A DNA stretch of 64,000 nt from an uncultured Bifidobacterium sp. (GCA_964553795.1 CAZKMR010000010.1:267-64266); one strand, 5' to 3'. Shown: positions 4,969 through 27,890, counted from the stretch's first letter. The notes: generated from the sequence alone by a model not told the origin. A program made the numbers and translations.

Positions 4969-6369
4969 ATGAATCTGATCGAGTCATTGGAGCGAACCGC
5001 GGCGCGAGTGCCGCAAAAGGCGGCGTTAATCGAGGACGCCACGACGGTGACGTATGCGGAACTCTTGCAGCGGGTGAACAGTTTTGCGGATGGATTGCGG
5101 GCGCAACAGGTTTCGTCCGGGCAACGCATCGGGTTGGCGTTTCCGAATGGCGTGGCCTACGTGGCGCTGACGTATGCGTTGTGGCGTTGCGGCGTGGTGG
5201 TCGTGCCCGTGCCGACGGAATGTTCCGAAGACGAAATTCAGGAAATCATCGCCGCGATGCAGTTGCAGGGCATCGTGACGCCCAAGCCGCGCGGCGACAG
5301 CGTGTCGCTTGCGCCGGATGTTTTCTTCACGCGCCTCCAACCAACTGCTCCGCCCGATAATCACGGGCTTAATCTCGCGTTCATCCGGTTCACGTCCGGC
5401 ACAACGAGCGCGCGCAAGGGCGTGGCGTTGTCGCACGAAACGATTCGCGATCGCGTCGCTTCCGCAAATAAAGCGTTCGGCATCACGGCAGACGACACCA
5501 TCATCTGGTGTCTGCCGATGGCGCATCATTTTCTCATCACCATCGTGCTCTACATCGAAGTCGGCGCGACGATTGTGCTCGCACGGCACGTGACGGCGAA
5601 ACCGTTTCTCGAGGCGGTGAATCGCTGGAACGGCACGGTGCTTTACGCGGCGCCGTTTCATTACTCGATGTTGGCGCGGGACAATTCCGGCGCGCAAATT
5701 CCCTCGGTGCGATTGGCGGTTTCGACCACGTGCGCTTTGCCCGAGAACGTGGCGCAGGATTTTCTGAAACGCTTCAATCTCCCGCTTGTGCAGGCGTTGG
5801 GCGTGATTGAACTTGGCTTAGTCGCATTGAACACCGGCGATCCGCGCGGGCGTTGGAATTCTGTTGGGCGCGCGGCGGGCGACTTTGAGTTGCGCATTGA
5901 GAAGCCGGATGCGGAAGGATGCGGCGAATTGGCCGTGCGCGGGCCAGGAATTTGCGATGCGTATGTCGCGCCGTGGGTAGCGCGCGAACAGATTTTGCGC
6001 GATGGCTGGTTCTTCACCGGCGACATCGGGCGCTTCGATGCGGACGGATTTTTGCATCTGCTCTCACGCAAGACGGCAGTGATCAATCTGGCCGGGCGCA
6101 AAGTTTTCCCCGAGGAAATTGAAAGCGTGTTGAATCAACATCCCGATGTCCGCGAGTCGCGCGTGTTCGGCACGACACATCCGCACCTCGGCGAAGTGGT
6201 GGAAGCCGAATTGGTGATGGCGCAACCGGACGCGAAGTTGGATTCCGTGCGCGCGTATTGCCGCGATCACCTGGCGTCCTACAAAATTCCGATGCGCTTT
6301 CACATCGTCGCCGCCTTGCCTCGCACGCCGGTTACCGGCAAAATCCGCCGCGCCGCTCCGGTGGCTTGA
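4969..6369 (+). CDS. Acyl-AMP/acyl-CoA ligase (class I adenylate-forming enzyme)
   Basis: In frame with track ORF 4921..6369. Likely start is MNLIESLERTAARVPQKAALI. AMP-binding core FTSGTTSARKGVALSHE, then a later GWFFTGDIGRFDADGFLHLLSRK motif and a C-terminal PRTPVTGKIRR. The ACP gene starts 6 nt downstream. Confidence 0.85.
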   Translation: MNLIESLERTAARVPQKAALIEDATTVTYAELLQRVNSFADGLRAQQVSSGQRIGLAFPNGVAYVALTYALWRCGVVVVPVPTECSEDEIQEIIAAMQLQGIVTPKPRGDSVSLAPDVFFTRLQPTAPPDNHGLNLAFIRFTSGTTSARKGVALSHETIRDRVASANKAFGITADDTIIWCLPMAHHFLITIVLYIEVGATIVLARHVTAKPFLEAVNRWNGTVLYAAPFHYSMLARDNSGAQIPSVRLAVSTTCALPENVAQDFLKRFNLPLVQALGVIELGLVALNTGDPRGRWNSVGRAAGDFELRIEKPDAEGCGELAVRGPGICDAYVAPWVAREQILRDGWFFTGDIGRFDADGFLHLLSRKTAVINLAGRKVFPEEIESVLNQHPDVRESRVFGTTHPHLGEVVEAELVMAQPDAKLDSVRAYCRDHLASYKIPMRFHIVAALPRTPVTGKIRRAAPVA

Positions 6370-6374
6370 AACGA

Positions 6375-6629
6375 ATGATTGCCGCAGCCGAAATTGAAAC
6401 GAAACTCATCGACTTCCTGAAACGCGAAGTGTTCGCGCCGGATGTCGCCGTCACGCCTGAAACCGATCTCGTCGCGGCGGGATTTGATTCCATGTCGCTC
6501 GTGCGGATGTTGGTCTTCATCGAAACCGACTACGGTTTTTGGATTCCCGAGAGCGAAATCACCGGCGATGCGCTGCAGAACGTTCGCACGCTCGCCGAGA
6601 CCATCGCGCGGTTGCTCAATGCCCGCTGA
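6375..6629 (+). CDS. Acyl carrier protein
   Basis: 84 aa, from the internal Met of track ORF 6258..6629. Phosphopantetheine attachment motif GFDSMSLV in a typical ACP helix II context. Confidence 0.85.
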   Translation: MIAAAEIETKLIDFLKREVFAPDVAVTPETDLVAAGFDSMSLVRMLVFIETDYGFWIPESEITGDALQNVRTLAETIARLLNAR

Positions 6630-7890
6630 CCTGCCACTGAACGGCTGCGATTACCTGATGCTGGGGTTTGATTACGAACTCCGTCGCAACGGTTACGCCG
6701 GAAATTCCTGCCAGATCATCCTCGAACTGGATCGCGTTATCGCTGCCGAGGCATTGCGCCAGCGGCTGGAAATGCTGGTGCAACGACATCCCAATTTACG
6801 TGCGCGGCCTGGGGGATTGTTCAAGACGAAGTGGAGACCGTTGCTGGCGGAGAGCGGGTTTCCCCGCGTCCGCGTTCACAAAAAGAACTTGGTTCACCTC
6901 GATCAACTTTGCGATCAACCGCTCGACGTGCGAAATGGCGAACTGTTCCGCTTCGATTTGATTGAAAAGGCGAACGGCGGAATGGACGTTGTGTTTACCT
7001 GGACGCACGCGTTGATGGACGCGCCGAGCGCGGAACATTTTCTCGCGGTCGTGGGGCGGGAGGATGTTGCGGTGCCGGCAGTCACACCGCCCGCACCAAG
7101 ACCAAAGAAGCCACTGAAGGAACGACTGCTGTTGGCACGCAAAAACGTCGAGCAGTTGACGGAGTTTTGCAAAGCCGCGCCACGCACGGTGGGCGTGCGA
7201 TTTCCGAATGCGCCGCGAACTCAGCGCTATCACATCGAAAAGTTTTCCGCCGAAGAAACGGCCCGCGTGCGCGCGAACGGTGTGAAGCTCTGCGGCGCAT
7301 TGGGTGATGCGCAATTTCACGCGGCGGTGGCGGTGATGGAATTGCATCGCTTGCATGAACGCGTCGGAAAACCGTCGCCGAGTTATGTGTTGCCCGTGCC
7401 GGTGAGCTTTCGGCCTAAAGGCACGGTCGAGCCGCTATTCAGCAATCAGGTGGCGATGCTGATGGTGCAATTTTTGCCCGAGCAACTTGCGACGACGAGC
7501 GCGGCGGTCGCCGTGCTCAAGACGCAACTGGCGCAGGCGTTGCGCGAGCGGCGTATTGAAGCCGGCGTGGCGATCACGGAACTGTCGCGCGGCATGCCTT
7601 TCCCGCTATATCTCTACGTGCTGAAGCATCATGGGTTGAAGGGTGAGATTTGCTCGTTCTTTTACGGCGACACCGCAAATGTCACGCCGCTGCTCAACAG
7701 CTTTTGTGGTGCGACGATTACCGACTTCGCGCATGTCGGCGCGACCACGCCATCGCCGGGCATTGGCGCGATCTTTTATTACTTCGCTGGCAAAATGCGC
7801 GTCACGGTTTTTCATTTGGAGACGCATTTCTCTCGTCACGAAGCAGCAGAATTCGCCTCGAATCTGCGGAAACGATTACTCGAACCGTGA
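6619..7890 (+). CDS. Condensation-domain-like acyltransferase (HxxxD family), paralog 1
   Basis: 423 aa from the internal ATG at 6619, which overlaps the ACP stop. FTWTHALMDAPSAEHF contains an HxxxD motif like those of NRPS C-domains, PapA5 and WS/DGAT. Full-length paralog of 14547..15818, with the same length. Confidence 0.7.
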   Translation: MPADLPLNGCDYLMLGFDYELRRNGYAGNSCQIILELDRVIAAEALRQRLEMLVQRHPNLRARPGGLFKTKWRPLLAESGFPRVRVHKKNLVHLDQLCDQPLDVRNGELFRFDLIEKANGGMDVVFTWTHALMDAPSAEHFLAVVGREDVAVPAVTPPAPRPKKPLKERLLLARKNVEQLTEFCKAAPRTVGVRFPNAPRTQRYHIEKFSAEETARVRANGVKLCGALGDAQFHAAVAVMELHRLHERVGKPSPSYVLPVPVSFRPKGTVEPLFSNQVAMLMVQFLPEQLATTSAAVAVLKTQLAQALRERRIEAGVAITELSRGMPFPLYLYVLKHHGLKGEICSFFYGDTANVTPLLNSFCGATITDFAHVGATTPSPGIGAIFYYFAGKMRVTVFHLETHFSRHEAAEFASNLRKRLLEP

Positions 7891-9035
7891 AATCGCACGT
7901 GGACATCGCGGTGGTCGGTGCGGGAGCGGCGGGAATCGCGGCAGCGGTGAGCGCGGCGCGTGCGGGGGCAAAGACGTTGCTGTTGGATGCGCGGTCGGCA
8001 GCAGGCGGCACGGGAGGCTTCAGCGGGTTGACGACGTTGTGTGGGTTGTACGATGACGCGGGGAATCTTTTGAATGACGGTTTTTCGCGGGAATTTGCCG
8101 AAGCGATTGCGGAGCGCCGGCCTCCGGCACGGCTCGATTCTAAGTCCGAGCCCCAACGCGCCGGGCCGGAGGCCGGCGCTCCGATCAGAATGGGCCGCGT
8201 CTGGGTGTTGCCGTATCGTCCGGAGAAATTTTGCGAAGTGGCAGCGCAGTTGATTTCAGCAACGGCGAATCTGACAACGCAATGGAGCACGCCGCTGGCG
8301 AATGTTCATTTGGAATCCGGTCGCATATCGCAACTCAATGATGTTTCGGTCGGTGCGGTGATTGATTGCAGCGGCACGGCCGAAGTAGCGCAGGCCGTCG
8401 GCGCGGAAACCCTGGCAACTGACGAATCAACTCAAGCATCTGCGGTCATCTTCACACTGCGCAATGTGCAGAAGCCGCTCGCGACCCCAGCGGACATGGC
8501 GCAAGTGTTGTTGCCGCTGGCGCGCGCAGGATTTCCAACGCTCAATCTTCAAGCCGGCATCGCCCCGGGAGAATTCACCGCGAAGTTCGCGGGAACTCCG
8601 GCGCAAGTGCCGGAGCTGATTTCTTTCTTGCGAGCAAATGTTGCCGGTTTTGAACAATGCGAAACGCCGCAGCGGGAATTCACCATCGCGCGCCGCGCCG
8701 GCAGGATGATTATTGGTCAATGTATCCTGACCGGCGCAGACGTTTTGGCGGGGCGAAAGTTTCCTGATGCGGTGGCGCGATGCGCCTGGCCCATCGAGCA
8801 ATGGGACAGCAAAGGTGTCGCGCGCTTCAAATATCTTCCGGCGGGGGCGCACTATGAAATTCCAGCGCGTTCGCTGCGCGCGGCGCGAGTGGAGAATTTG
8901 TTCATGGCCGGCAAAACCATCAGCGCGGACGTGGACGCGATTGCCAGCGCGCGGGTGATGGGCTGTTGTCTCGCCACTGGTGCGGCGGCTGGAGTTCTGG
9001 CGGCGGACTACGTAAACTCGGGCCGAACCAAGTGA
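7887..9035 (+). CDS. FAD-dependent oxidoreductase
   Basis: The GTG at 7887 overlaps the upstream stop (GTGA). Rossmann motif DIAVVGAGAAGIAAAVSAARAGAKTLLLD. C-terminal FMAGKTISADVDAIASARVMGCCLATGAAAG is typical of the FAD_oxidored-type family. Confidence 0.75.
   Translation: MKSHVDIAVVGAGAAGIAAAVSAARAGAKTLLLDARSAAGGTGGFSGLTTLCGLYDDAGNLLNDGFSREFAEAIAERRPPARLDSKSEPQRAGPEAGAPIRMGRVWVLPYRPEKFCEVAAQLISATANLTTQWSTPLANVHLESGRISQLNDVSVGAVIDCSGTAEVAQAVGAETLATDESTQASAVIFTLRNVQKPLATPADMAQVLLPLARAGFPTLNLQAGIAPGEFTAKFAGTPAQVPELISFLRANVAGFEQCETPQREFTIARRAGRMIIGQCILTGADVLAGRKFPDAVARCAWPIEQWDSKGVARFKYLPAGAHYEIPARSLRAARVENLFMAGKTISADVDAIASARVMGCCLATGAAAGVLAADYVNSGRTK
8111..8182. repeat. 72-bp perfect-armed palindromic element embedded in frame inside the FAD oxidoreductase CDS
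   Basis: GGAGCGCCGGCCTCCGG (8111-8127) is the exact reverse complement of CCGGAGGCCGGCGCTCC (8166-8182). There is an inner GGCTCG...CGAGCC stem. The right arm plus flank (GGCGCTCCGATCAG) matches the intergenic GGAGATCGGCGCTCCGAT family at 11552-11750 and 15916-15948. Confidence 0.7.
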
Positions 9036-10276
9036 CCAAACCGTTCGATCAACTTTGGGCTGAAACCTTTCGCCATGCGGCAGAACATTCGCCGTATTAT
9101 CGCGAATTGTTTCGCGACGCGAAGGACGTTCCACCGCTCGATTCCGTTCCCACCCTCGATAAGAAGATTTTGTCCGAGCGCAATCTGGATTTCCTCTGCG
9201 TCTCGCGTGATCGCATTGTTGAGATTGTGACAACGAGCGGAACGACGGGTCAGCCGCTGCTCTGGATGTTGACCGAGGCGGACCTGAAGCGGCTCGGAGT
9301 GAACGAGCAACTTTCCTTCGGCTGCGCCGGGCTCACGGCGCGGGACACGGTGCTCGTGGCGGTGGCGATGGATCGTTGTTTCATGGCGGGGTTGGCGTAT
9401 TGGCTGGGGCTGCGCGAAATCGGCTGTGGCGTGGTGCGAACCGGTGCGACGTCGCCGTTGCTGGTGCTGGAAATGATTCAACGCGCGCAACCAACCGCGA
9501 TTGTCGGTGTGCCGTCGTTCCTCCGCATCGTCTCCGACAAAGCGTGGGAAGCGGGCATTGACCTCAAGAAATCTTCGGTCAAAAAACTTGTCTGCATTGG
9601 CGAGCCGATTCGCGATGCTTCGTTCCAATTGAATCACTCGGGAGCGGTACTGGAATCGGCATGGGGCGCGAAGGTTTTTTCCACTTATGGCGTGACCGAA
9701 CTCGCCAATTCGCTTTGTGAATGTGAAGCCGGGCAGGGCGGCCATTTGCACGAGGAACAACTGCACATCGAAATTCTCGATGACGCCGGCCAGTCCGTAC
9801 CAGACAGCGAAGTAGGTGAAGTGGTGGCGACGACGTTTGGCGTCGAGGCAATGCCGGTGATTCGGTATCGCACGGGCGATTGTGCGGCGTTGTATCGCGG
9901 CAAATGTGTGTGCGGTCGCAGCACGCCTCGGCTGGGGCCGATCATCGGACGCAAGAATCAAAAGCTGAAGTTCAAAGGCACATCGCTATATCCGGCGACA
10001 CTTGCGGCGGTGCTCGAACAGGCGCCGGGCGTGGAGGCGTTTGTAATTCAGGCGCGGAAGGAAAGCGAGTTGTCCGACGCGGTTGAAGTGCTGGTGCATG
10101 GTTCAGCGCTCGTGGCGGAATTACGCGAACAGTTTCAGGCGCGGACCAAAATCGCGCCACAAATTCGCCATGCGACGCGGGAGGAAATCGAGTCGCTGCA
10201 AATGCCGCCGCAAGCGCGGAAACGGCGCACGTTTGTGGATTTGCGAAACGAAAGTTCACCCGGAGGAACGATGTGA
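9032..10276 (+). CDS. Phenylacetate-CoA ligase / coenzyme F390 synthetase-like adenylating enzyme
   Basis: The GTG at 9032 overlaps the upstream stop (GTGA). TTSGTTGQPL (adenylation core), YGVTE and RYRTGD motifs. About 414 aa, typical of the PaaK-like family. Confidence 0.75.
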   Translation: MTKPFDQLWAETFRHAAEHSPYYRELFRDAKDVPPLDSVPTLDKKILSERNLDFLCVSRDRIVEIVTTSGTTGQPLLWMLTEADLKRLGVNEQLSFGCAGLTARDTVLVAVAMDRCFMAGLAYWLGLREIGCGVVRTGATSPLLVLEMIQRAQPTAIVGVPSFLRIVSDKAWEAGIDLKKSSVKKLVCIGEPIRDASFQLNHSGAVLESAWGAKVFSTYGVTELANSLCECEAGQGGHLHEEQLHIEILDDAGQSVPDSEVGEVVATTFGVEAMPVIRYRTGDCAALYRGKCVCGRSTPRLGPIIGRKNQKLKFKGTSLYPATLAAVLEQAPGVEAFVIQARKESELSDAVEVLVHGSALVAELREQFQARTKIAPQIRHATREEIESLQMPPQARKRRTFVDLRNESSPGGTM

Positions 10277-10297
10277 TGCCGACGCATTCTGAAGCCA

Positions 10298-10426
10298 TTT
10301 TGGACAGCGGAGGCAAGCGGAGCGCGACCCCGCTTTTTGGGTTGCAGAAATTTCGTGAGAACTCGATTGACTGCTGTGCTTGCGAAAGCGCCGTCGCCGC
10401 TGATGCTCTGCCGGCGCAGTCCAAAA
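10298..10426. repeat. Second copy (opposite orientation) of the 128-129-bp palindromic unit seen at 1552-1679
   Basis: The reverse complement of the right arm, TTTTGGACTGCGCCGGCAGAGCATCAGCGGCGACGGCGCTTTCG, is near-identical to 1552-1594. The left arm TTTTGGACAGCGGAGGCAAGCGGAGCGCGACCCCGCTTTTTGG is its imperfect inverted partner. The element ends 1 nt before the ATG at 10428. Confidence 0.75.
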
Positions 10427-10427
10427 C

Positions 10428-11552
10428 ATGAAGCCGTGCATCGTCATTCCGTGCTACAACCACTCGGCGACTGTCGGCGCGGTGGCTCTGGCGGCGTTAG
10501 CGCATGCGCCGGTGATTGTGGTGGATGACGGCTCAACGGAAGCGTTGCCGGAGTTGCCGGGTTGCGACGTATTGCGCCTGGCGCGAAACAGCGGTAAGGC
10601 AACGGCATTGCGCGCAGGATTTGCGCGTGCGGTCGAGCGAGGATTCACGCACGCGATCACGATGGACGCGGACGGGCAGCACTTCGCAGAGGATTTACCA
10701 AAGTTTCTCGCGGCAGCGGAACAACAGCCAAACGCTTATCTCGTCGGCGTGCGCGATTTGGTGGCAGCGGGTTGTCCGAAACATCGGCAACGCTCGAATC
10801 GCATTTCGACGTTCTGGTATCGTGTGGAAACGGGCGTGCGGATTCGCGATACGCAATGCGGCTTTCGTTGTTACCCGCTGGCGCTGGTGCAGCGACTCAA
10901 GATCAATTCCAATCGCTACGCCTACGAATTGGAATTCATGGTGCGCGCGGCTTGGATCGGAACGCAGATTGTCGCCGTGCCGGTGAAATGCACGTACGCG
11001 CCGGGACAGGCGGGGGCATCGCATTTCCGGACCGTGCGGGATTTTTGCCACATCACGGGCATGAACATCCTGCTCGTGTTTCAATCGTGGCTCGTGCCGC
11101 AAACCGTGCGCATCGCGTGGTCGCAGGGACAACGCTGGGGTTTTCGGAAAACCGCGCGCGAATTTTTTACCGAACACGCTCACAGTCCCGGACGCATGGC
11201 ACTGGCGGTTGGACTGGGTTTATTTTTCGGCATCGTGCCAATCTGGGGTTTTCAAATGGCGGCGGCGGCGGCGAGCGCGCATTGGTTGCGGTTGAACAAA
11301 GCCATCGCGCTCTCGGCGAGCAACATTTCCATGCCTCTGATTGCGCCGTTTATCTTGTGGGGTGCAATGGTGCTGGGACATTGGATGTTCACGGGCGAGA
11401 TTTTGCAACTGACGCGTGAGCAAATGGAGCAATCATCCGTGCGCGAATTTTTACCGCGGTTTTTGGCGGGTAGCGTGGTGTTGGCGATGATTGTGTCGGT
11501 GCTCGGAACGATGATCACCTACGTCATCGCGTGGTTCGTGAAGCGGAAGTAG
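10428..11552 (+). CDS. Family 2 glycosyltransferase fused to a DUF2062-type membrane domain
   Basis: 374 aa. GT2 N-terminus CIVIPCYNHSATV ... VIVVDDGSTE ... MDADGQH. The C-terminal approx 130 aa are polytopic and hydrophobic (GLGLFFGIVPIWGFQM...), as in DUF2062. Confidence 0.8.
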   Translation: MKPCIVIPCYNHSATVGAVALAALAHAPVIVVDDGSTEALPELPGCDVLRLARNSGKATALRAGFARAVERGFTHAITMDADGQHFAEDLPKFLAAAEQQPNAYLVGVRDLVAAGCPKHRQRSNRISTFWYRVETGVRIRDTQCGFRCYPLALVQRLKINSNRYAYELEFMVRAAWIGTQIVAVPVKCTYAPGQAGASHFRTVRDFCHITGMNILLVFQSWLVPQTVRIAWSQGQRWGFRKTAREFFTEHAHSPGRMALAVGLGLFFGIVPIWGFQMAAAAASAHWLRLNKAIALSASNISMPLIAPFILWGAMVLGHWMFTGEILQLTREQMEQSSVREFLPRFLAGSVVLAMIVSVLGTMITYVIAWFVKRK

Positions 11553-11750
11553 CTGGAGCGCCGATCTCCAGATCGGCCAGTTTCGTAGGATAACAGTGAT
11601 TGCCGAATTCGATATCGAATCCAACCCACCCCTAACCCCTCCCGGGAGGGGAACGTGATTGCGAGTGCTTTCGCGTTTTGCTCCCCTCTTGGGAGGGGCT
11701 GGGGGTGGGTTCAGCCACGAGCCGATCAGGAGATCGGCGCTCCGATCAGC
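11552..11750. repeat. Nested inverted repeats filling the gap between convergent genes (possible bidirectional terminator or REP cluster)
   Basis: The outer pair is GGAGCGCCGATCTCCAGATCGGC (left) and GCCGATCAGGAGATCGGCGCTCC (right), each itself a hairpin (GCCGATC-nnnn-GATCGGC). The inner pair is AACCCACCCCTAACCCCTCCCGGGAGGGG and CTCCCCTCTTGGGAGGGGCTGGGGGTGGGTT. Confidence 0.7.
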
Positions 11751-13053
11751 GAATCATCAATTCCTTCGGATCGCGTTTGCTGAGGCCGTGATTTACGACG
11801 AAACGCAGCAGGCCGAGGCTGTAACGGGAATTTGATGCGGCGCCGGTGAAGATTTTTCCGAAGTGATTGCTCATGTGCGGCATCATCAATCGGAAGATAA
11901 AATACTTCTCCACCATCATCTGGCCGACGACGACGGAGTTGAACAAGCTGCCGCTGTAAAAATAATCCACGATTTCGTGCCAGCATTTCAGGTGATGAAT
12001 GGTTTCCTCTTGGTAGTGTTGAAACCCGCGGGCCGTGCCCTTGCGAATCGCCTTTGCCAACTCGACGGCGCCTTGCATGCCGATGAGCAAACCGCTGGAG
12101 AACACGGGATCAATGAAGCCCGCCGTGTCGCCAACCAAAGCCCAACCGTCACCAACGGTGCGATCCGAAACGAGTTGGTAATTGGAGTATTCCATCACGG
12201 GCGTGAGTCGTTTGGCGTCGCCAGCGACCTGTTTCAAAACGGAATCCTGGCGCAGCAGATTGTCGAAACGTTCTTCCTTCGTCGCGCCGTATTTCGGTAG
12301 ATGCTCCGTGCCGATAACCATGCCGACGGACACACGCCCTTGCAGCGGAATGCGCCAACTCCAGCCGTGGTCCATGCGCGTGGTATGAACGTGGCCTTCA
12401 TAATCGAGTTTGGTTCGATCCACGTGGGCAAAGAGCGCGGTGTCTTTACGCCCGCCTTCGCGACTGGGAATGTTCAGAGCATTTGGTAACAGGCGAATGC
12501 GTCCCGTAGCATCCACGATGAAATCCGGAGCACCGGGAAAATGTTGATTCCAGAGCGCCAGGGTTTCGCGGGAGAGTTGCACGCGATCCGTGCCGGGATT
12601 GGCTTCGACGGCTGCGGGTGACTCGATAATTCTCGTGCCCGCCTTCCGCGCGGCGTTGAGCAGCGTTTCGTCAAATTTGTCGCGGGGAACATTGTAGGCG
12701 TAACCGGGCAGCGGACCGCGGATGTTGGAAAACGGGAACGAGAGATTGATTTCTTCCGTGAGATTGATGGTTGCACCGGGTTTGTAGAGTCCGTAAGTGC
12801 GAACTTCATCTTCGACGCCGAGCGTTCGCAAAATGGGAATGATGGCGGGCACGAGCGATTCGCCAACGAGCAACGGTGCTTGGCGCGAGCGATGAAAAAT
12901 CGCGACCTGGATGCCATCGCGGGCGAGTAGCGTTGCGAGCGTGCTCGCCGCCGGTCCGCCGCCGAGAATAGCGACGGTTTTGATCTGGCGATCACGACCA
13001 ATAAATTTGCGCGCGTCGGGGTGGATGATGTCGTTCGGCTGATTGTTCTTCAT
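11746..13053 (-). CDS. Flavin-dependent halogenase-type oxidoreductase, paralog 1
   Basis: 435 aa. GxGxxG motif ILGGGPAAS. Contains the halogenase hallmark WxWxIP as GWSWRIPL, and a conserved Lys in YKPGATINL. Confidence 0.8.
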   Translation of the reverse strand: MKNNQPNDIIHPDARKFIGRDRQIKTVAILGGGPAASTLATLLARDGIQVAIFHRSRQAPLLVGESLVPAIIPILRTLGVEDEVRTYGLYKPGATINLTEEINLSFPFSNIRGPLPGYAYNVPRDKFDETLLNAARKAGTRIIESPAAVEANPGTDRVQLSRETLALWNQHFPGAPDFIVDATGRIRLLPNALNIPSREGGRKDTALFAHVDRTKLDYEGHVHTTRMDHGWSWRIPLQGRVSVGMVIGTEHLPKYGATKEERFDNLLRQDSVLKQVAGDAKRLTPVMEYSNYQLVSDRTVGDGWALVGDTAGFIDPVFSSGLLIGMQGAVELAKAIRKGTARGFQHYQEETIHHLKCWHEIVDYFYSGSLFNSVVVGQMMVEKYFIFRLMMPHMSNHFGKIFTGAASNSRYSLGLLRFVVNHGLSKRDPKELMIR

Positions 13054-13241
13054 CAGGGCGGATTCAGGTTAGAAGCCAACCCGGATGATGGCAATGGCAG
13101 TTCCAGCGTGTATGTCTCGCGACCGGAAATCCGCTTGAGTGCGTCCGAGTGCATTTTAGAATAGCAGCGCTTGCCGAACTCAGAAGTAATCGCTGTGATC
13201 GACGCGAACTCGGCAGCAAACCAAACTCAGATGCGTTACGC

Positions 13242-14507
13242 ATGAGCAGTTTGAACGGGCACACCAAGAAATATCAGAACATCGCGATTCTGGGCGGCGG
13301 GCCGGCGGCGAGTACGCTGGCGATTTTGTTGCGCCGCGCGGGTCGCGGCGTGGTGATGTTTCATCGCCCGAAGCAAGTCGCGCTCACGGTCGGCGAATCG
13401 CTCGTGCCGGCGATTGTCACGATGTTGCGGCAGTTGGGCGTGGAAGAAGAAGTGCGCGCGTTCAGCATGATGAAGCCTGGCGCGACGTTTAACATCACGC
13501 CGGAAGACCATTTTGCGTTCTGGTTCGAGCGGTTGCCGAAGAAGACGCCGCATTATTCCTACAACACGCCGCGCGATCAGTTTGATGAAACTATTCTGAA
13601 AGCCGCGCGTAAGGCAGGCGCGCACGTGGTCGAAGCGGCGGCGCAAGTAGAACGCGTGAATCAAACCGATCGCGTGCGATTGACGGGAGATTCGCTGGTC
13701 GCGTGGAATCAGTTTTTTTCAGGCGAACCGGAATTGATTGTGGATGCAACAGGGCGGGCGCGAGTGATTCCGGGCTTGTTGAATTTGCCGAGTCACACGG
13801 GGCCGCGGAAAGACACGGCGCTCTTTGCGCACGTGGACAAAGCAAATCTTGATCATGAAGGTCACGTACACACGACGCGCATGAATCACGGCTGGAGCTG
13901 GCAGATTCCGCTGCCGAATCGCGTGTCGGTGGGATTGGTCGTCGGATCGGAATTTCTTGCGCCGTTCGGAGCAACGAAAGAGGAACGCTACGACAATTGG
14001 CTCAAACAAGATCCGATGTTGAAACGCGTGACGGGCGAATCCAGACGCGTAACCCCGGTGCTGGAATACTCCAATTACCAGCTCGTGTCGGATCGCATGG
14101 TGGGGGACGGCTGGGTGCTGGTGGGCGATACGGCGGGGTTTGTGGACCCGGTTTTTTCGAGCGGCCTGTTGATCGGAATGTATGGCGCGATGAAATTGTG
14201 CGACGCGATTCAGATGGGAACGGCGCGGGCGTTCGCGGATTATGAACGCGAGATGAAGGAGCAACTCAACATTTGGCAGGAGATCGTGGACTATTTTTAC
14301 AACGGACGACTGTTCACTTTTTTCCGCGCGGGTGAGCGATTGAAAGACAATGTTTTCATCAAGCTGACGCGCCCGCATCTGGTGGCGAATCTCGGCGGCA
14401 TTTTCAGCGGGGCGGCTTCGACGTCGGCGTATTCGACCGGGCTGTTGCGCTTTTTGATGAAACACGCGTTGCGCGATGAAGACCCGGCGGAGTTGGCGGT
14501 GCGTTAA
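13242..14507 (+). CDS. Flavin-dependent halogenase-type oxidoreductase, paralog 2
   Basis: 421 aa from the internal ATG of track ORF 13149..14507 (MSSLNGHTKKYQNIAILGGGPAAS). WxWxIP motif as GWSWQIPL (nt 13893-13910) and Lys in MKPGATFNI. Collinear similarity to 11746..13053 throughout. Confidence 0.8.
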   Translation: MSSLNGHTKKYQNIAILGGGPAASTLAILLRRAGRGVVMFHRPKQVALTVGESLVPAIVTMLRQLGVEEEVRAFSMMKPGATFNITPEDHFAFWFERLPKKTPHYSYNTPRDQFDETILKAARKAGAHVVEAAAQVERVNQTDRVRLTGDSLVAWNQFFSGEPELIVDATGRARVIPGLLNLPSHTGPRKDTALFAHVDKANLDHEGHVHTTRMNHGWSWQIPLPNRVSVGLVVGSEFLAPFGATKEERYDNWLKQDPMLKRVTGESRRVTPVLEYSNYQLVSDRMVGDGWVLVGDTAGFVDPVFSSGLLIGMYGAMKLCDAIQMGTARAFADYEREMKEQLNIWQEIVDYFYNGRLFTFFRAGERLKDNVFIKLTRPHLVANLGGIFSGAASTSAYSTGLLRFLMKHALRDEDPAELAVR

Positions 14508-14546
14508 TTTGGAGTAAATGAATTTCATGATGAGGAGTTATCCCCG

Positions 14547-15818
14547 ATGAGCAGTGTCTGGCCGCAGAATGGCTGCGATTATTTGATGCGGAGTTTTGAC
14601 TGGGAATTGCGCCGGCACGGTTATGCGGGCAATTCGTGTCAGATCATCCTCGAACTGGCCGCACCCATTCAACCCGAGGCGTTGCGCGCACGGTTGAAGA
14701 TGTTGGCGGAGCGATATCCGATTTTGAATGCGCGTTCTGCGGGAGTTTTTCGACGGCGTTGGAAATTGCCGAGTGGTGAGGTCAAACCGCCTCAAGTCCG
14801 TGTGCATCCGGATGCGCCCGAGTTGATGCAACGACTCGTCAACGAAGGGCTCGCTTCGGATAACGGCGAGTTGATGCGTTTTGATTTGATCGAGTGCGGC
14901 GCTGGGCGAATGAAAGTGTTGTTTACCTGGGCGCACGCATTGATGGATGCGCATAGCGCGGAACACTTCATCGGCGTAGTGGGACGCGAGGATTTGGCGT
15001 TGCCGGCGACGGAATATCAACCGCCGGCGGGACCGCGTTTGCCGTTCAAGGAGCGGAGTCGTCGTGCGCTGAAAAACTTTCAGGCGTACAATCAATTCCG
15101 CAATCAAGCGCCGCGTTCGCCGGGAGTGCGACATGCGAATGCGCCCGCGATTTTGCAACATCGCGTGGAGTTATTCACCGCAGTGGAAACGGCGCAGGTG
15201 CGGGCGAATGCGCGCAAACATGCCGGGGCGTTGGGCGAAGCGCAATTTCACGCGGCGGTTTCTATTTTGGAAGTGCATGAACTGCACAAGCGGATTGGGT
15301 GCGTGAGTCCGAGTTATTTGTTGCCCGTGCCGGTGGGCTTGCGACCCAAGGGCAATGTTGAGCCGCTGTTCAGCAATCAGGTGACGATGTTGTTGTTGCA
15401 GTTTTTGCCGGAGCATCTGACGGACATGGCGAAAACCATCGCGCACTTGAAGACGCAGACCAGTCAAGCGATGCGAGACGGCGTGGTGGATGGCGGGGTG
15501 ATGTTTTTGGAAATGCTGCGCGTGTTGCCGCTGCCGGCGCATCAGGGCTTCACGAAGATGGGATTGAAAGGTGAGGTGTGTTCGATTTTTTACGGCAACA
15601 CAGCGGCGGTGAGTGCGGTGGTGACAAAGTTTCTTGGGGTGGAGATTGTGGATTTCACGCATATCGCGGCGGTGCCGCCGTCGCCGGGCATGGGAGTGAT
15701 TTTTTACAACTTTCGTGGCTTGCTGCGCGTGACGATTTTGCATCTGGCGAAGACGTTGAACGAAGCGGAGGCGGCGGATTTTGCGGCGGGATTGCGGCGG
15801 CGGCTGTTGGGAGGATGA
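14547..15818 (+). CDS. Condensation-domain-like acyltransferase (HxxxD family), paralog 2
   Basis: 423 aa. FTWAHALMDAHSAEHF. Shares long identical blocks with 6619..7890: NGCDYLM, GYAGNSCQIILEL, EPLFSNQV, PSPG.G.IFY. Confidence 0.7.
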   Translation: MSSVWPQNGCDYLMRSFDWELRRHGYAGNSCQIILELAAPIQPEALRARLKMLAERYPILNARSAGVFRRRWKLPSGEVKPPQVRVHPDAPELMQRLVNEGLASDNGELMRFDLIECGAGRMKVLFTWAHALMDAHSAEHFIGVVGREDLALPATEYQPPAGPRLPFKERSRRALKNFQAYNQFRNQAPRSPGVRHANAPAILQHRVELFTAVETAQVRANARKHAGALGEAQFHAAVSILEVHELHKRIGCVSPSYLLPVPVGLRPKGNVEPLFSNQVTMLLLQFLPEHLTDMAKTIAHLKTQTSQAMRDGVVDGGVMFLEMLRVLPLPAHQGFTKMGLKGEVCSIFYGNTAAVSAVVTKFLGVEIVDFTHIAAVPPSPGMGVIFYNFRGLLRVTILHLAKTLNEAEAADFAAGLRRRLLGG

Positions 15819-15915
15819 GGAACGCGGAGGCGCAGAGGACGCGGAGAGGCACGGAGGCATTCGGCGATCCATATTCAATTTTCATTCGGCTGCGTTTCTT
15901 CGTGATTCAGATTCA

Positions 15916-15948
15916 GGCCGATTCGGAGATCGGCGCTCCGATTGCAGG
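15916..15948. repeat. Copy of the GGAGATCGGCGCTCCGAT hairpin element, preceded by degenerate CRCRGAGG tandem repeats (15823-15858)
   Basis: GGCCGATTCGGAGATCGGCGCTCCGATTGCAGG closely matches 11721-11750. Just after the stop at 15818 lies ACGCGGAGG CGCAGAGG ACGCGGAGAGG CACGGAGG. Confidence 0.65.
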
Positions 15949-16054
15949 AACGGAAGCGACTGGTTTTCGCGCTTGGCTTCGCTAAACTTCGCGGGCCGAA
16001 CATGACGGAACTTTCTGCAACTGGCCTCGCTTGGGAGGCAACGCGCGCGAAGCG

Positions 16055-19000
16055 ATGAACTTCGATCTCTACTCGCGCTTGTATCTCTGGCTCGTGGCGC
16101 ATCGGCGGCTCACGTTGTTCCTCACGCTCGTCGTCACGTTGGTTTGCACCGTGGTGTCGCTGCAAATCCGCACCAAGGAAGACATGCTCGACATGTTGCC
16201 GAGCGGCGATGAGCGCGTGGAGGAGTATCGCTACGCGTTGCGTAAATTCCGGCAGATTGACCGCGTTTACATGGACATCGGTATCAATCGCGATGATCCG
16301 GAAACGTTGGCGCGCGCGGCGGATGCGATGTACGAACGGCTCGCGACGAACAGCGCGTTTGGGCGAATTCAATATCGCGTCGAGATGGGCAACCAGGATC
16401 AGATCGTGAGTTATCTGACCGGCGCATTGCCAAATCTTTTCACGGCAGAAGACGCGCGGGAATTGGAAGCGAAGCTTCAGCCGGAGGAAGTGCGGGATTA
16501 TCTCACCACGATGCGGCGCAAGTTGGCCGGGCCGGAAGGCATGGTGCTGAAGAATGTGATCGAAGCCGATCCGATTGGCAGCAGTGGGTTGGTGGTGAAG
16601 AAAGTGTTGCCGTTGCAGGCGGGTTTTGGCGGCGCGGAGATTGTGGAAGGTCGCATCACGAGTAGCGACGGGCGGCACGTGTTGATGTTGGCCGAACCAA
16701 AATTTCCATCGTCGGATTCGGGCGCGAGCGCGGAATTGGTGCGCGAGATGGTGCGCGCGGCGCGTGACGTGGAGCAGCAATTTCCCGGGGTGCATGTCGC
16801 CATCACGGGCGGGCATCGCATGTCGGTGGACAACGCGACGATCATCCGCGCCGATGCGCAACGCTGTATCGCGATCGGCATGGTGGCGATGATTGTTTTG
16901 TTCCTCTTCGCGTATCGGCGGCGTTGGTTGGCAATGGTGACGTTTCTGCCTTCCTTCTTTGGGACAACCGTCGCGGGCGTGATGTTGGCGATCTGGCACG
17001 ATCAACTTTCCGCGATTGCGCTGGGGTTTGCGTCCATCGCCGTGGGCATCACGGTGGATTACGCGATTCACGTCATCTATCACCTCGATGACGCTGGAGC
17101 AGCCGATCACCCGAAGCGCGCGAAGCATCTGACGCAATTGGTGTATCCGATTTCGGTGGGCGTGATTACGACGGTGGCGGCGTTCATGGTGATGCTGGCG
17201 TCGCCGATCAACGGTTACCGGCAACTTGGCATGCTGGGCACGGTGGGCGTGGTGTTCTCGGCGGCGTTTGCGTTGATTATTTTGCCGTTGCTGGTGCCGC
17301 CGGCGAAAGGCGGCAGCGTGGCGCCGTTGCGATTGACGGGATTGTGGGAACGCTTCTTCCAGTGGCAGGCGAAGCGTCGCGGCATCGTGGTGTTGATCGC
17401 GCTCGTGCTGACGCTGGTTGCGGTGTTCGGCGTGCGGCATCTGCGGTTCGAGGGCGACATCACGAAGATGAATGGCATCACCGATTCCACGCGTGCGGAT
17501 GAGGCGTTGATCAGTAAAACGTGGGGCGACGCGGTGGGTATGACGTTGGTGGTCACGCGCGGCGAAACTCCGGCGGAAGCGCTGGCGCAGAATGATCGCT
17601 TGGCGGCGGCGTTGGCGGGGAACACGAACGTGACGGCGGTATATTCGTTGGCGGCGATTTGTCCCGCGCCGGAAACACAGCGCGAAAACATGCAACGCTG
17701 GCGCGAGTTTTGGACGGTAGAGCGGCGCGAGAATTTGCGGCAAACGCTGACGCAGGTCGCAGGCGAATTGGGTTTTCGTGCCGATGCATTTGCGAGGTTC
17801 TGGCAACAACTGGAGAGCGAACCGGAGTTGTTGACGCTGGAACAGTTTCGCGGCACGCCGTTGGAGAAAGCGCTTGATGAGCGGGTGGCATTGGCGGAAG
17901 GCGATAACGCGATCAGCACCGTCGTGCGATTGGCGGATCGAGCGCAGGCGGGACAACTGCGGGAGTTGGTGCCGGGCGCGATTGTTTTGGACGGAAAAGA
18001 TTTCGCCACGCATTTAGCGGCGATTGCGAAAGACGGACTGAAGGCGTTTGCCGTTGGGACGACGATTGCCGTCGGCATTTTGCTCGCGGTGTGTTTGGCG
18101 TCCCTCGAGCTGATGGCGGTAACGCTCGTGCCGATTGTCGTGGGCCTGCTGTGGACGTTCGGGGCAATGGCTTGGTTGGGGCTGCCGATTGATTTGATGA
18201 ACAGCATTTTTGTGATCTTCATCATTGGTGTGGGTGAGGATTACGCGGTGTTTCTGGTGACGAGTCGGTTGGATGAATGGCGCGGGCGCGCGAGTCATTC
18301 GGCGGTGGCCAGTGCGTCGGTGTTCGTGTCGGCGGCAACGACGATTTTTGGTTTCGGCGTGATGGTGTTGGCGGATCATCCGGTATTGTTTTCGATGGGC
18401 GCAACGGTGCTCATCGGGATGTTGTTCACGTTCGTGGCCACGCTACTGCTCACGCCGCTGTGCATGGACGTGTTGTTGTTCAATCCCATGCCGCGCGGCG
18501 CGCCGAAGTGGTGGCATGTGCTGGGCACAATCTGGGTGACGCTGCACCTGGGCGGGATTCAGGTTTATCTCTACACGGTGTTGCGACCGGTGCTGAAGTT
18601 GTTTCGCGTGCGCAACGGCGACGCTTTTCTGCGGGCGAGCGCGCGATATCTGGTGCGCGGTTTGATTAAAGCGATGCCCTTTGGACGAACGCGCTTGCAC
18701 GACATCACTCCGGAGACATTTAAGAAACCCTCAATCGTCATCAGCAATCATCAATCGGCGGTGGATACGTTATTGGTCAAAGGATTGCCCGGTGACGTGC
18801 GGCAAACGGCGAAAAAGCGCGTGTTCGATTCGCCGCTGTTGGGTTTCAGTTGCAAATATCTCGGTGAAGTGATGGTCGAGCCGAACAATCCGGAAGGCAC
18901 CTTGCAACGGGCGCGAGAAGTGTTGCGGAGCGGAGCGTCGGTGCATTTTTATCCGGAAGGCACGCGGTCGCTGGACGGCTCGGTGCAACGCTTTCGCCGG

Positions 19001-19885
19001 GGCGCGTTTGAACTGGCGGTGGAATTGAAGCAGGAGATTCTGCCGATTGTGATTTGCGATTCAAACACCGCGATGCCGCGTGATGCATTTTGGTTTGAGC
19101 CCTATCGCCTCACGATGCGGGCATTGCCGCGCATCACGCCGGAGAATTTCGACTATTCGCAAGGTGTCGGGCCGTTGATGAAACATTGCGAGGAGATTGT
19201 GCGCGCGGGCTTGCAGGCAGAAATGGATCGCCTCAACACGCCGGCTACTGTGCGGCGGAAGATTCGCCGGCTCTTTCGGTATCAAGGCGTGATGGTGGAA
19301 GAGTTCGTGAAATGGAAACTCAAACTTGATCCGGTGTTTTCGGTGTTGGATGAAGTTGTGCCGCGGCGGGCGCACGTTTTGGATCTCGGTTGCGGATACG
19401 GCTTGGCGACGCATTGGCTGGCGGCATTCACGGATACGCGAACGTTTGTCGGTTACGATTACGACGAAAATAAAATTCGCGTGGCGAAACGCACGGCGGC
19501 GGAGCAGCAGCGGATTCGCTTCGAGGCAGCGGACGTGTTGACGGCGGAGTATCCGGCGTGCGACGTGGTCTTGTTGTTGGACGTGTTGCATTACTGGACG
19601 GCGGAAAAGCAATTGCAGATGCTGACGAAGGCGCGGCAGGCATTGCGACCGGGTGGGCGATTGGTGTTGCGCGATGGCATTCGCGCGGAAACGGAAGCGC
19701 ATCAAAAGGTCTATCGTTGGGAACGGTTTGCCACGCGAGTGGGGATGAATCGCACGGTGGAAGGGTTGCATTTTCAGACGCAGGAAGAGTTGCAGACTTT
19801 GTTGCGGCAAGCGGGATTTGTGCGGTGGGAATTCAAGGCCGGGGCCGGCAAGGATTCGAACGTCATGCTGGTCGCATCTGCCTGA
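16055..19885 (+). CDS. Triple fusion: MMPL/RND-type 'predicted exporter' + PlsC-family (LPLAT) acyltransferase + class I SAM methyltransferase
   Basis: ATG at 16055, within track ORF 16031..19885. The N-terminal approx 800 aa carry two polytopic hydrophobic bundles separated by soluble loops. Next come the acyltransferase motifs SNHQSAVDTLL (HX4D) and FYPEGTRS. The C-terminus has the methyltransferase motif I VLDLGCGYGLATHWLA and LRPGGRLVLRD. Confidence 0.8.
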   Translation: MNFDLYSRLYLWLVAHRRLTLFLTLVVTLVCTVVSLQIRTKEDMLDMLPSGDERVEEYRYALRKFRQIDRVYMDIGINRDDPETLARAADAMYERLATNSAFGRIQYRVEMGNQDQIVSYLTGALPNLFTAEDARELEAKLQPEEVRDYLTTMRRKLAGPEGMVLKNVIEADPIGSSGLVVKKVLPLQAGFGGAEIVEGRITSSDGRHVLMLAEPKFPSSDSGASAELVREMVRAARDVEQQFPGVHVAITGGHRMSVDNATIIRADAQRCIAIGMVAMIVLFLFAYRRRWLAMVTFLPSFFGTTVAGVMLAIWHDQLSAIALGFASIAVGITVDYAIHVIYHLDDAGAADHPKRAKHLTQLVYPISVGVITTVAAFMVMLASPINGYRQLGMLGTVGVVFSAAFALIILPLLVPPAKGGSVAPLRLTGLWERFFQWQAKRRGIVVLIALVLTLVAVFGVRHLRFEGDITKMNGITDSTRADEALISKTWGDAVGMTLVVTRGETPAEALAQNDRLAAALAGNTNVTAVYSLAAICPAPETQRENMQRWREFWTVERRENLRQTLTQVAGELGFRADAFARFWQQLESEPELLTLEQFRGTPLEKALDERVALAEGDNAISTVVRLADRAQAGQLRELVPGAIVLDGKDFATHLAAIAKDGLKAFAVGTTIAVGILLAVCLASLELMAVTLVPIVVGLLWTFGAMAWLGLPIDLMNSIFVIFIIGVGEDYAVFLVTSRLDEWRGRASHSAVASASVFVSAATTIFGFGVMVLADHPVLFSMGATVLIGMLFTFVATLLLTPLCMDVLLFNPMPRGAPKWWHVLGTIWVTLHLGGIQVYLYTVLRPVLKLFRVRNGDAFLRASARYLVRGLIKAMPFGRTRLHDITPETFKKPSIVISNHQSAVDTLLVKGLPGDVRQTAKKRVFDSPLLGFSCKYLGEVMVEPNNPEGTLQRAREVLRSGASVHFYPEGTRSLDGSVQRFRRGAFELAVELKQEILPIVICDSNTAMPRDAFWFEPYRLTMRALPRITPENFDYSQGVGPLMKHCEEIVRAGLQAEMDRLNTPATVRRKIRRLFRYQGVMVEEFVKWKLKLDPVFSVLDEVVPRRAHVLDLGCGYGLATHWLAAFTDTRTFVGYDYDENKIRVAKRTAAEQQRIRFEAADVLTAEYPACDVVLLLDVLHYWTAEKQLQMLTKARQALRPGGRLVLRDGIRAETEAHQKVYRWERFATRVGMNRTVEGLHFQTQEELQTLLRQAGFVRWEFKAGAGKDSNVMLVASA

Positions 19886-22139: not shown

Positions 22140-22142
22140 GAC

Positions 22143-22760
22143 GTGAACCCGACGACAAACATGCTAAGGCGACTTGCGCGGCGTCAGTGGCTGGCGCCGG
22201 GGGCGGTGCTGCGGCAGGCCCTGGCAGTGGTCGTGGCGGCGCAATTCGCCGTGGCGGCGGCGCGAGCCAGCGAGGTGAACGCCGTCGAGTACGGCGTGAA
22301 AGGCGCCTTTCTGGTCAAGTTCGGCATGTTCGTCGAGTGGCCGACGGGAACTTTTTCCGAGACTCAATCGGTGTTCCGGATTGGCATCCTGGGGGACGAT
22401 CCGTTTGGACCGGAATTTGAAGCGGCGGCGCAAAAGGAAAAAATTGCGGGTCGGACCGTGGAGATTCGGCGCGGCCGACGACCGGAAGAACTGAAGGATT
22501 GCCAGATTGTCTTTCTCAGCGCCGCTGAATCGGCGCGGTTGGCCGAGTGGATTGCCGCGTTGGGGGAGAAAGGCATTTTGCTGGTGGCCGACGCACCGGA
22601 GTTTGTGGCGCGCGGCGGGATGATTGGGTTCATCAAAGAAGAGGGCAAGATTCGGTTTGAGATCAATCCGGCGGCGGCCGAGCGGGCCGGACTGAAGATC
22701 AGTTCAAAATTACTTCAGGTGGGCAAGCGCGTGAATCGCGTGGAGACGGTGGCAGGCTGA
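22143..22760 (+). CDS. YfiR-like DUF4154 periplasmic protein
   Basis: 205 aa. VEYGVKGAFLVKFGMFVEWP ... ILLVADAPEFVARGGMIGFIKEEGKIRFEINPAAAERAGLKISSKLLQVG matches the DUF4154/YfiR pattern end to end. Starts 3 nt after the receptor stop. Confidence 0.8.
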   Translation: MNPTTNMLRRLARRQWLAPGAVLRQALAVVVAAQFAVAAARASEVNAVEYGVKGAFLVKFGMFVEWPTGTFSETQSVFRIGILGDDPFGPEFEAAAQKEKIAGRTVEIRRGRRPEELKDCQIVFLSAAESARLAEWIAALGEKGILLVADAPEFVARGGMIGFIKEEGKIRFEINPAAAERAGLKISSKLLQVGKRVNRVETVAG

Positions 22761-22761
22761 T

Positions 22762-27383: not shown

Positions 27384-27884
27384 ATGGGGCAGCCACAAAA
27401 TGCCTGTGAACAAATGTCGAATTCCGCCATAGCCACGACGCCGATTTACAATTCCGTGTACCGCCACGGTTGTGATGAGAAGCGACGCATTCAAATCCCG
27501 GCGATGTGGCGACCGACGGAAGAAGGCGTGCAGTTCACATTGATCGTGTGGCCGCAACGAAACGAAGGTCCGTGTTTGCGCGTGTTGCCGCCGAAAGAAA
27601 TGGCGGAACTGATGGCGGAGTTGGATGCAATGCCAAACAGCAATCAAAACAAAACGGTGCTCAAGCGCATCATCGGTTCGAAGTCCACCCAGGTGGCTTT
27701 GGACAAGGCGGGGCGGATTTGTGTGCCGGAAGATTTGGCGGCGGCGGCGGGCATCAAAGTCGGAATGGAAGTGGTGCTCGTCGGTTTGTTGGATCGATTT
27801 GAGATTTGGGAGCCGGCGCGTTATGCGCGCGTTGATGCGGCAGACGATGTCCTGGCCTCGGAAGCCTTCAAGTTAATGGAATAA
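27384..27884 (+). CDS. mraZ: Transcriptional regulator MraZ
   Basis: 166 aa. Two SpoVT/AbrB-like repeats, CDEKRRIQIPAMWR and LDKAGRICVPEDLAAAAGI. First gene of the dcw cluster. The start may be the Met at 27414. Confidence 0.85.
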   Translation: MGQPQNACEQMSNSAIATTPIYNSVYRHGCDEKRRIQIPAMWRPTEEGVQFTLIVWPQRNEGPCLRVLPPKEMAELMAELDAMPNSNQNKTVLKRIIGSKSTQVALDKAGRICVPEDLAAAAGIKVGMEVVLVGLLDRFEIWEPARYARVDAADDVLASEAFKLME

Positions 27885-27890
27885 ACGAAC

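Follow-up and report, generated by a model that had tools for sequence, protein, structure and literature searches.

A ten-gene block as the probable tailoring and export operon of a split flexirubin/aryl-polyene-type cluster

Gene content of the block and its counterparts in pigment clusters

The 64,000-nt stretch CAZKMR010000010.1:267-64266 (assembly GCA_964553795.1, uncultured Bifidobacterium sp.), called the window here, carries a block of ten genes (g1 to g10) at positions 4969-19885. An earlier note had described this block as an orphan acyl-lipid pathway that works on a pre-formed acid and needs no ketosynthase (KS). Ten open reading frames (ORFs) are indeed found there, all intact and with their catalytic motifs kept. 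The first gene, g1 (4969-6369, plus strand), encodes a FadD/MenE-like adenylating ligase of the ANL type with Pfam AMP-binding and AMP-binding_C domains (190 bits). It is presumed to load the adjacent acyl carrier protein (ACP) g2 (6375-6629, plus; 84 aa; Pfam PP-binding, 29 bits), which has the serine motif GFDSMS. The nearest PDB relatives of g1 are oxalyl-CoA, o-succinylbenzoate, feruloyl, fatty-acyl and benzoate ligases, and because these are so varied its substrate is not assignable. A standalone condensation-family (C-family) protein, g3 (6619-7890, plus), follows with the motif T-H-A-L-M-D-A around H130, and then a PF12831 FAD-dependent oxidoreductase, g4 (7887-9035, plus; Pfam FAD_oxidored, 212 bits). 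Next are g5 (9032-10276, plus), a FlxY-like aryl-acid CoA ligase of the PaaK/F390-synthetase type with a PaaK-type AMP-binding domain, and g6 (10428-11552, plus), a GT2-DUF2062 glycosyltransferase of the ApeJ/FlxT type (Pfam Glycos_transf_2 and DUF2062). Two flavin-dependent halogenases with Pfam Trp_halogenase domains are encoded by g7 (11746-13053, minus) and its inverted paralogue g8 (13242-14507, plus, with a possible GTG start at 13149). The second standalone C-family protein, g9 (14547-15818, plus), is 54% identical to g3. Finally, g10 (16055-19885, plus) encodes a trifunctional, FlxU-type protein of 1276 aa, in which an MMPL exporter, a PlsC-type acyltransferase (HQSAVD) and a class I S-adenosylmethionine (SAM)-dependent methyltransferase (VLDLGCGYG) are joined in one ORF (Pfam MMPL, Acyltransferase and Methyltransf). 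Pfam and NCBIfam hidden Markov models confirm the calls made earlier for the ligase, ACP, FAD oxidoreductase, PaaK-type enzyme, GT2-DUF2062 fusion, halogenase and MMPL-PlsC-methyltransferase fusion.

The layout is less uniform than the head-to-tail order first described. The g7 gene lies on the minus strand, and gaps of about 150-240 nt are found at 10277-10427, 11553-11745, 13054-13241 and 15819-16054. GTGA start/stop overlaps are present at 7887/7890 (g3/g4) and 9032/9035 (g4/g5), but the third overlap listed earlier, g2/g3 at 6619/6629, is 11 nt long with the sequence ATGCCCGCTGA and is not ATGA. In a site scan of the window, sigma-70 promoter sites are not enriched (3 against 5.3 expected) and terminator-like sites number 33 against 23.8 +/- 5.1 expected; such scans do not reveal the transcript structure.

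The earlier comparison of the gene inventory with the accessory set of aryl-polyene, flexirubin and xanthomonadin clusters holds: g5, g6, g10 and the halogenase have named flexirubin counterparts. In the flexirubin gene table (PMC3992019), FlxY is an F390-synthetase-like protein with biochemically demonstrated 4-coumarate-CoA ligase activity, FlxT is a GT2 glycosyltransferase, FlxU combines an exporter with acyl- and methyltransferase and FlxK is a halogenase. The same table lists FlxW (C45), FlxE (lipid A acyltransferase), FlxP (deacetylase), FlxQ (LolA), FlxF and FlxS (dehydratase-like) and several KS genes. A GT2(-DUF2062) FlxT, a FlxU, a FlxK halogenase and, less firmly, a FlxY-type ligase are shared by the window and the flexirubin clusters compared, namely C. 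pinensis flxA-flxY, F. johnsoniae Fjoh_1075 onwards and the annotated flexirubin-type cluster on plasmid pPP6 of Persicobacter psychrovividus (Bacteroidota). A tblastn search of plasmids with g10 returned full-length trifunctional homologues in Persicobacter and Aureispira (26% identity, 94-97% coverage, E 1e-104 to 1e-118), and the similarity to the pPP6 cluster runs across all three domains at 26-30% identity. In addition, g5 matches over its full length the Persicobacter ligase that occupies the FlxY position (40% identity over 413 aa), and g6 matches the Persicobacter GT2-DUF2062 protein (35% over 367 aa, E 4e-71). No match in the pPP6 cluster was obtained for g1, g2, g3/g9, g4 or the halogenases.

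The aryl-polyene lipid (APEL) clusters apeA-R of E. coli CFT073 and Xenorhabdus doucetiae also resemble the block in their GT2 ApeJ, LPLAT protein ApeD and MMPL/RND exporter ApeM. A study of the Xenorhabdus APEL assigns to ApeD, ApeJ and ApeM the assembly and export of a GalNAc-phosphoglycerol lipid that bears the aryl polyene. The N-terminal part of CFT073 ApeJ is 40% identical to g6 (E 5e-45), and weak matches link the MMPL and LPLAT parts of g10 with ApeM and ApeD; neither ApeH nor ApeB of E. coli is significantly similar to g1, g5 or the methyltransferase domain. The exporter, acyltransferase and methyltransferase that g10 unites in one protein are encoded by separate genes in E. coli, and ApeJ has an LpxL-like domain in place of DUF2062. 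The E. coli cluster is without a C-family protein, PF12831 flavoprotein, C45 protein or halogenase. To be noted, ApeJ of CFT073 (L085 8213-9889) matches the window GT2 with its N-terminal part and a Verrucomicrobial LpxL-like acyltransferase (k2) with its C-terminal part. The GT2 and LpxL-like activities are therefore fused in E. coli and divided between two operons in Verrucomicrobia.

A polyketide synthase operon beside the core in related loci

The absence of KS, ketoreductase (KR) and dehydratase (DH) genes from the cluster and its flanks, claimed in the earlier note, is borne out across the 64 kb, both in Pfam scans of every large ORF and in tblastn searches with E. coli FabH/D/G/F, all CFT073 Ape proteins and the polyketide synthase (PKS) operon of Verrucomicrobial relatives. 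The window holds no type II PKS ketosynthase or chain-length factor (ApeO/ApeC/ApeR; FlxC/I/L/N/O type), no ApeI/ApeP-type dehydratase, no FabG-like ketoreductase, and no LolA-like carrier, polysaccharide deacetylase or C45 protein (FlxQ/FlxP/FlxW). This speaks for a reading in which the operon works without a PKS: a pre-formed aromatic or fatty acid would be adenylated, carried on the ACP, halogenated, transferred to a glycolipid acceptor by the C-family and PlsC-type enzymes, methylated and exported, and the product would be a non-polyene halogenated aryl-acyl lipid. The ten intact ORFs with their catalytic motifs speak for it too, as does the closest relative of the block, a locus of ~89% identity (L006), which is likewise without an adjacent PKS operon. 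A further locus (L089) points the same way: it has a ligase-ACP-C-family-flavoprotein-halogenase module and no KS called within its 10 kb upstream flank, on a contig that stops ~2.3 kb 3' of the C-family gene.

The related loci give a different picture. A genome scan for C-family loci with a closer alignment (A1), the divergent family alignment (A2) being too variable, returned 77 loci. A core of seven genes is conserved and strictly collinear in ~60 Verrucomicrobiota loci, and the outer flanks of these loci are unrelated. The core runs in the order FadD-like ligase, ACP, standalone C-family protein, PF12831 flavoprotein, FlxY-like ligase, GT2-DUF2062 protein and MMPL-LPLAT-methyltransferase fusion. 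In several loci, genes for PlsC, C45/AAT and a hotdog protein lie convergent to g10, and the partner operon was found by walking outward from the C45 gene. In locus L086 (contig CAZIJO010000006.1) a second operon lies on the opposite strand directly after the seven-gene operon. It encodes a KR, an LpxL-like acyltransferase, an ApeP-like DH, a KS, a small unknown protein and an ACP, and further a 747-aa KS/Ketoacyl-synt_2 protein, a polysaccharide deacetylase, LolA, an unknown protein, an ApeI-like DH, C45 and PlsC. The Pfam domains agree (adh_short/KR, Lip_A_acyltrans, ApeP-like PF22817, ketoacyl-synt twice, Polysacc_deac_1, LolA, ApeI-like PF22818, AAT and Acyltransferase). By its predicted gene content this is an aryl-polyene/flexirubin type II PKS core. 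All its proteins match the Persicobacter pPP6 cluster collinearly, and the partner operon of the relatives has FlxW, FlxE, FlxP, FlxQ, FlxF/FlxS and KS/chain-length factor in the same order as flexirubin clusters. With the E. coli ape cluster it shares the KS, the KR (45%), the ApeI/ApeP-type dehydratases, the ACP (62%) and LolA. The Verrucomicrobial cluster differs from flexirubin clusters in being arranged as two convergent operons. No tyrosine ammonia-lyase (TAL) and no FabH-like (DarB-type) gene is present in the Verrucomicrobial loci; DarA was not searched for.

Adjacency was counted in the 36 Verrucomicrobial loci whose sequence includes the 3' end of g10. The PKS operon is found within 2.5 kb downstream of g10 in 26 of them (L003 and L063 lie on the same contig), and in seven the sequence stops less than 3 kb downstream. 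This leaves only the window, L006 and L009, in which 3 kb or more of downstream sequence is available and no PKS operon is seen there. Furthermore, one 2.63-Mb JGI contig carries both operons apart, the PKS operon at 408,590-430,245 and the accessory operon at 2,369,634-2,390,779, at a distance of 1.95 Mb. Split clusters therefore exist, and non-adjacency does not equal absence. Together with relatives that bear a cassette and still have an adjacent PKS operon, such as L008, and with the orthology of g5, g6 and g10 to polyene-serving parts of flexirubin-type clusters, this adjacency rule and the split yet complete cluster of one genome argue against a PKS-free pathway, which we regard as quite unlikely.

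We assign the block, with a probability of about 0.72, as one of two operons of a flexirubin/aryl-polyene-lipid-type cluster typical of Limisphaerales/Pedosphaera-like Verrucomicrobiota. Judged from its predicted proteins, it is most likely the operon for tailoring, lipid anchoring and export, and the PKS partner operon would lie elsewhere in the source genome. The view of the block as an orphan, KS-independent pathway, which the KS/KR/DH operons of the relatives contradict, is most likely an artefact of a split cluster. Membership in the family is indicated by the GT2 and the FlxU-type fusion and, less firmly, by the FlxY-like ligase; the PKS genes are seen in relatives, and their presence in the source genome is inferred. 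By analogy, the product of the cluster is likely to be an outer-membrane pigment lipid.

Several observations weigh against this assignment. Besides the KS, KR and DH genes missing from the 64 kb, no PKS operon is found within 6 kb downstream in the closest relative L006. The best NCBIfam model of g5, FlxY_rubin, gives 432 bits against a cut-off of 520. For g4, a PDB sequence search returned generic FAD/NAD(P)-binding matches only, and a fold search with its AlphaFold model (pLDDT 70) found only generic two-dinucleotide-binding flavoproteins at TM scores of at most 0.48. No characterised homologue fixes the roles of g1-g4 and g9. It could also be that the lineage of the window and L006 lost its PKS operon, and that the operon, enlarged by the cassette of two halogenases and a second C-family enzyme, makes a polyene-free halogenated aryl-acyl glycolipid by itself, in a new envelope-lipid pathway whose ester or amide would be formed by the standalone C-family enzymes; this we hold to be improbable and place below the PKS-free pathway. 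That the operon is a decaying remnant which makes nothing after loss of the PKS operon is very improbable. The PKS partner is not seen in the window, as such a remnant would have it, but none of the ten ORFs is shortened, their motifs are intact, translational coupling is kept, and the inserted genes retain 76-100% protein identity in L006.

The C-family proteins and their module

The two proteins described earlier as condensation-like HxxxD proteins are supported as such by the fold of an AlphaFold model and by H130/D134, but on Pfam Condensation g3 and g9 stay under the threshold (16.6 bits, or no match). The AlphaFold model of g9 (pLDDT 80, pTM 0.85) has a two-lobed, CAT-like fold. In a Foldseek search AzeD (8s6l) is the best match (TM score 0.75), followed by many condensation (C) and Cy domains of nonribosomal peptide synthetases (NRPS), at a probability of 1.0. 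Membership of g3 and g9 in the NRPS condensation-domain superfamily is thus supported by the modelled fold and the catalytic His. H130 is invariant across the C-family, and D134 is invariant in close homologues and at least 90% conserved family-wide. The family motif is [AT]HxLMDA, with both the first His and the Gly of HHxxxDG replaced. Proteins of the AzeD clade and of PapA5 type are likewise standalone, have the two-lobed C-domain fold and keep the catalytic His while the first His of HHxxxDG is replaced. Sequence identity to them is ~14%, and a profile search gave a weak match to the AzeD chain, which its depositors named a PapA5-like transferase; AzeD is a dehydratase. In contrast to AzeD and PapA5, the family of the window always occurs together with an ACP, an ANL ligase and a PF12831 flavoprotein. 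A reading of the operon as PDIM-like (FadD/PapA5/MmpL) was also considered and is retained as a mechanistic analogy only.

The C-family comprises 982 representatives at 50% identity and has neither a Pfam model nor a characterised member. Its homologues, which number in the hundreds and come mostly from Verrucomicrobiia, Limisphaerales and Pedosphaera metagenome-assembled genomes, are annotated solely as 'hypothetical protein'. In every retrieved context an ACP gene lies directly upstream of the C-family gene, and in P0172 (L005 3542-5248, 568 aa) the two are fused. The PF12831 flavoprotein and an ANL ligase follow the C-family gene in the retrieved contexts, often with halogenases close by. 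Versions of the module (L005, L089) also adjoin multiple halogenases, an amine oxidase and an AurF-like N-oxygenase; the module is therefore used outside Verrucomicrobial pigment clusters as well.

In Desulfobacterales loci (L069-L080) a B12-binding radical SAM gene is found between the C-family and PF12831 flavoprotein genes (e.g. L078 11308-12714). The module sits there among KS, KR, PKS-DH, thioesterases, ACPs, an LPLAT protein and an ApeH-like ligase, in clusters that also hold a TAL-like aromatic amino-acid lyase, a GT2 and an MMPL-methyltransferase fusion. In L078 (Desulfobacteraceae) the ApeH-like ligase and TAL-like lyase are accompanied by a DegV/Dak2 fatty-acid-kinase-like protein. 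Since the module occurs inside both Desulfobacterales and Verrucomicrobiota clusters, it appears as an accessory of aryl-polyene-like clusters in two phyla. The earlier note had seen the C-domain-like proteins as standing in place of the KS. They are present, but together with g1, g2 and g4 they form an addition that is not found in the E. coli CFT073, Persicobacter and C. pinensis clusters. The FadD-like ligase, ACP, standalone C-family protein and PF12831 flavoprotein of the Verrucomicrobial loci have no match in Persicobacter or in the published C. pinensis flx table. The g1-g4 module is the new element: neither the E. coli cluster nor the Bacteroidota clusters examined have it, and it is shared with aryl-polyene-like clusters of Desulfobacterales.

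The role of g1 and g2 could be a simpler one within a split cluster. They might be the starter-loading pair, like ApeH/ApeE or XanA2/XanC, with the C-family protein acting as an AzeD-like dehydratase on a tethered intermediate and not as an acyltransferase. A ligase and an ACP are adjacent here, as in starter-loading pairs already known, structurally the C-family is closest to the dehydratase AzeD, also without the first His of HHxxxDG, and the L086 PKS operon contains only one ACP against two in E. coli. However, a separate starter-type ligase is present in both lineages (FlxY-like in Verrucomicrobiota; ApeH-like with TAL in Desulfobacteraceae L078), g1 has no detectable similarity to ApeH, and ApeI-like and ApeP-like dehydratases are already encoded in the PKS operon. 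Because the separate starter-type ligase co-occurs in both phyla, we rank this reading lower and consider it unlikely, if better placed than a PKS-free pathway.

Halogenase cassette, flanking genes and proposed working

Between g6 and g10 the window has a cassette of 4.2 kb, made of the two halogenases and the second C-family gene. Both halogenases have the features of flavin-dependent halogenases (GxGxxG, the catalytic Lys, WxWxIP and the GD motif). The motifs are GGGPAA, KPGAT, WSWRIP and GDTAGFIDP in g7 and GGGPAA, KPGAT, WSWQIP and GDTAGFVDP in g8, and the Trp_halogenase scores are 85 and 105 bits. The closest PDB matches are FADH2-dependent halogenases, including FasV (8zop), Mpy16, CndH, CmlS and PltA. 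The systems of PltF/PltL/PltE/PltA, Mpy16 and CndH also combine an adenylating enzyme, a carrier protein, a flavin oxidoreductase and a variant-B flavin halogenase. Unlike in Plt-type systems, the ligase of the block is FadD/MenE-like and not an amino-acid A domain, and its flavoprotein belongs to PF12831 and is not an acyl-CoA dehydrogenase. By analogy with FlxK, the halogenases of the window may act on the aryl head group.

A repeat search showed that g8 and g7 are joined by a 454-nt inverted repeat, and smaller repeats lie at the cassette borders. The left edge is a repeat-rich spacer (11555-11746) with inverted copies of GCCGATC..GGAGATCGGCGCTCC and with a 30-nt G/C-rich inverted repeat (AACCCACCCCTAACCCCTCCCGGGAGGGGA / TCCCCTCTTGGGAGGGGCTGGGGGTGGGTT, 11623-11711); an inverted copy of the border repeat is at 11555-11578. 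At the right edge, 15906-15942 holds a direct-repeat copy of 37 nt that is 81% identical to 11710-11746 at a spacing of 4196 nt. The border repeats are palindromic and REP-like with the core GGAGATCGGCGCTCCGAT. The core 18-mer has four matches at up to three mismatches against 0.17 expected, three of the four at the cassette borders. The repeats that bracket the cassette suggest insertion or recombination at such sites. The halogenase varies among loci: none is found in L001, and L003 has a single gene between ligase and ACP. A pair of a halogenase gene (minus strand) and a C-family gene (plus strand) is inserted besides the core C-family gene in L007, L008 and L013; L009 and L010 have the same pair, and the core C-family gene is not contained in these two loci. 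L006 has the same additional genes as the window between g6 and g10, namely two for halogenases and one for a second C-family protein, and its cassette proteins are 76-100% identical to those of the window.

The block is flanked upstream by a transglutaminase-like gene, an alpha/beta hydrolase and an RlmI-like methyltransferase (Pfam). Downstream lie genes for a TonB receptor, YfiR and a hybrid kinase, a RibD_C gene, queA, the mraZ-to-ftsZ cluster, and signalling and fasciclin genes. Directly 3' of the cluster, 20064-25215 encodes a TonB-dependent receptor, a YfiR/HmsC-like DUF4154 protein and a CHASE8-HAMP-PAS hybrid histidine kinase. These genes could form a sensing module, and the segment is unlike the downstream flank of most relatives. 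The division and cell-wall cluster at 27384-44388 has the order mraZ, rsmH, ftsI, a SIMPL/DUF541 gene, one Mur ligase, mraY, ftsW, murG, murB, ddl, ftsQ, ftsA and ftsZ. This single Mur ligase is the only one in it, and the slot between mraY and ftsW, the usual place of murD, is occupied by a 234-aa protein with two LysM-like repeats (35943-36647). At 46855-53232 a gene on the minus strand for a response regulator with three PAS domains and a SpoIIE phosphatase precedes genes for two fasciclin-domain proteins, one of which has a single FAS1 domain and the other three.

For the split cluster we propose the following working, all steps of which are inferred from homology. The FlxY-like ligase g5 would activate an aryl acid, probably 4-coumarate or a similar one, as the PKS primer, and the partner PKS operon would lengthen it to an aryl polyene. 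The phenolic head group would be chlorinated or brominated by the halogenases and methylated by the methyltransferase domain of g10. The GT2-DUF2062 protein and the PlsC-type domain would make a glyco- or glycerolipid anchor, and the MMPL domain of g10 would send the pigment lipid towards the outer membrane. The g1-g4 module would be a lineage-specific addition, in which g1 may load a second carboxylic acid onto the dedicated ACP g2 and the PF12831 flavoprotein g4 may modify the acid carried there. The C-family enzyme would then either pass the acid to the lipid, at a hydroxyl or an amine, in the manner of PapA5, or dehydrate it in the manner of AzeD. In the window, this set of enzymes would have been enlarged by the repeat-flanked cassette with its two halogenases and its second C-family enzyme.

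Clusters for aryl polyenes and flexirubins belong to the most widespread biosynthetic clusters of bacteria, and to our knowledge little is understood of their late steps (esterification, anchoring and export). If a cluster is split, callers that depend on a KS will overlook its tailoring half or label it wrongly. The parts worth following up are the conserved module of g1-g4 type and the repeat-flanked halogenase/C-family cassette. Verrucomicrobiota and Desulfobacterota have both added a conserved ligase-ACP-C-family-PF12831 module to such clusters. Candidates for what it contributes are a second acyl group, a change to the head group or a dehydration step. Solving the module could reveal a new class of pigment lipid, and a large branch of the C-domain superfamily, so far uncharacterised, would gain a function.

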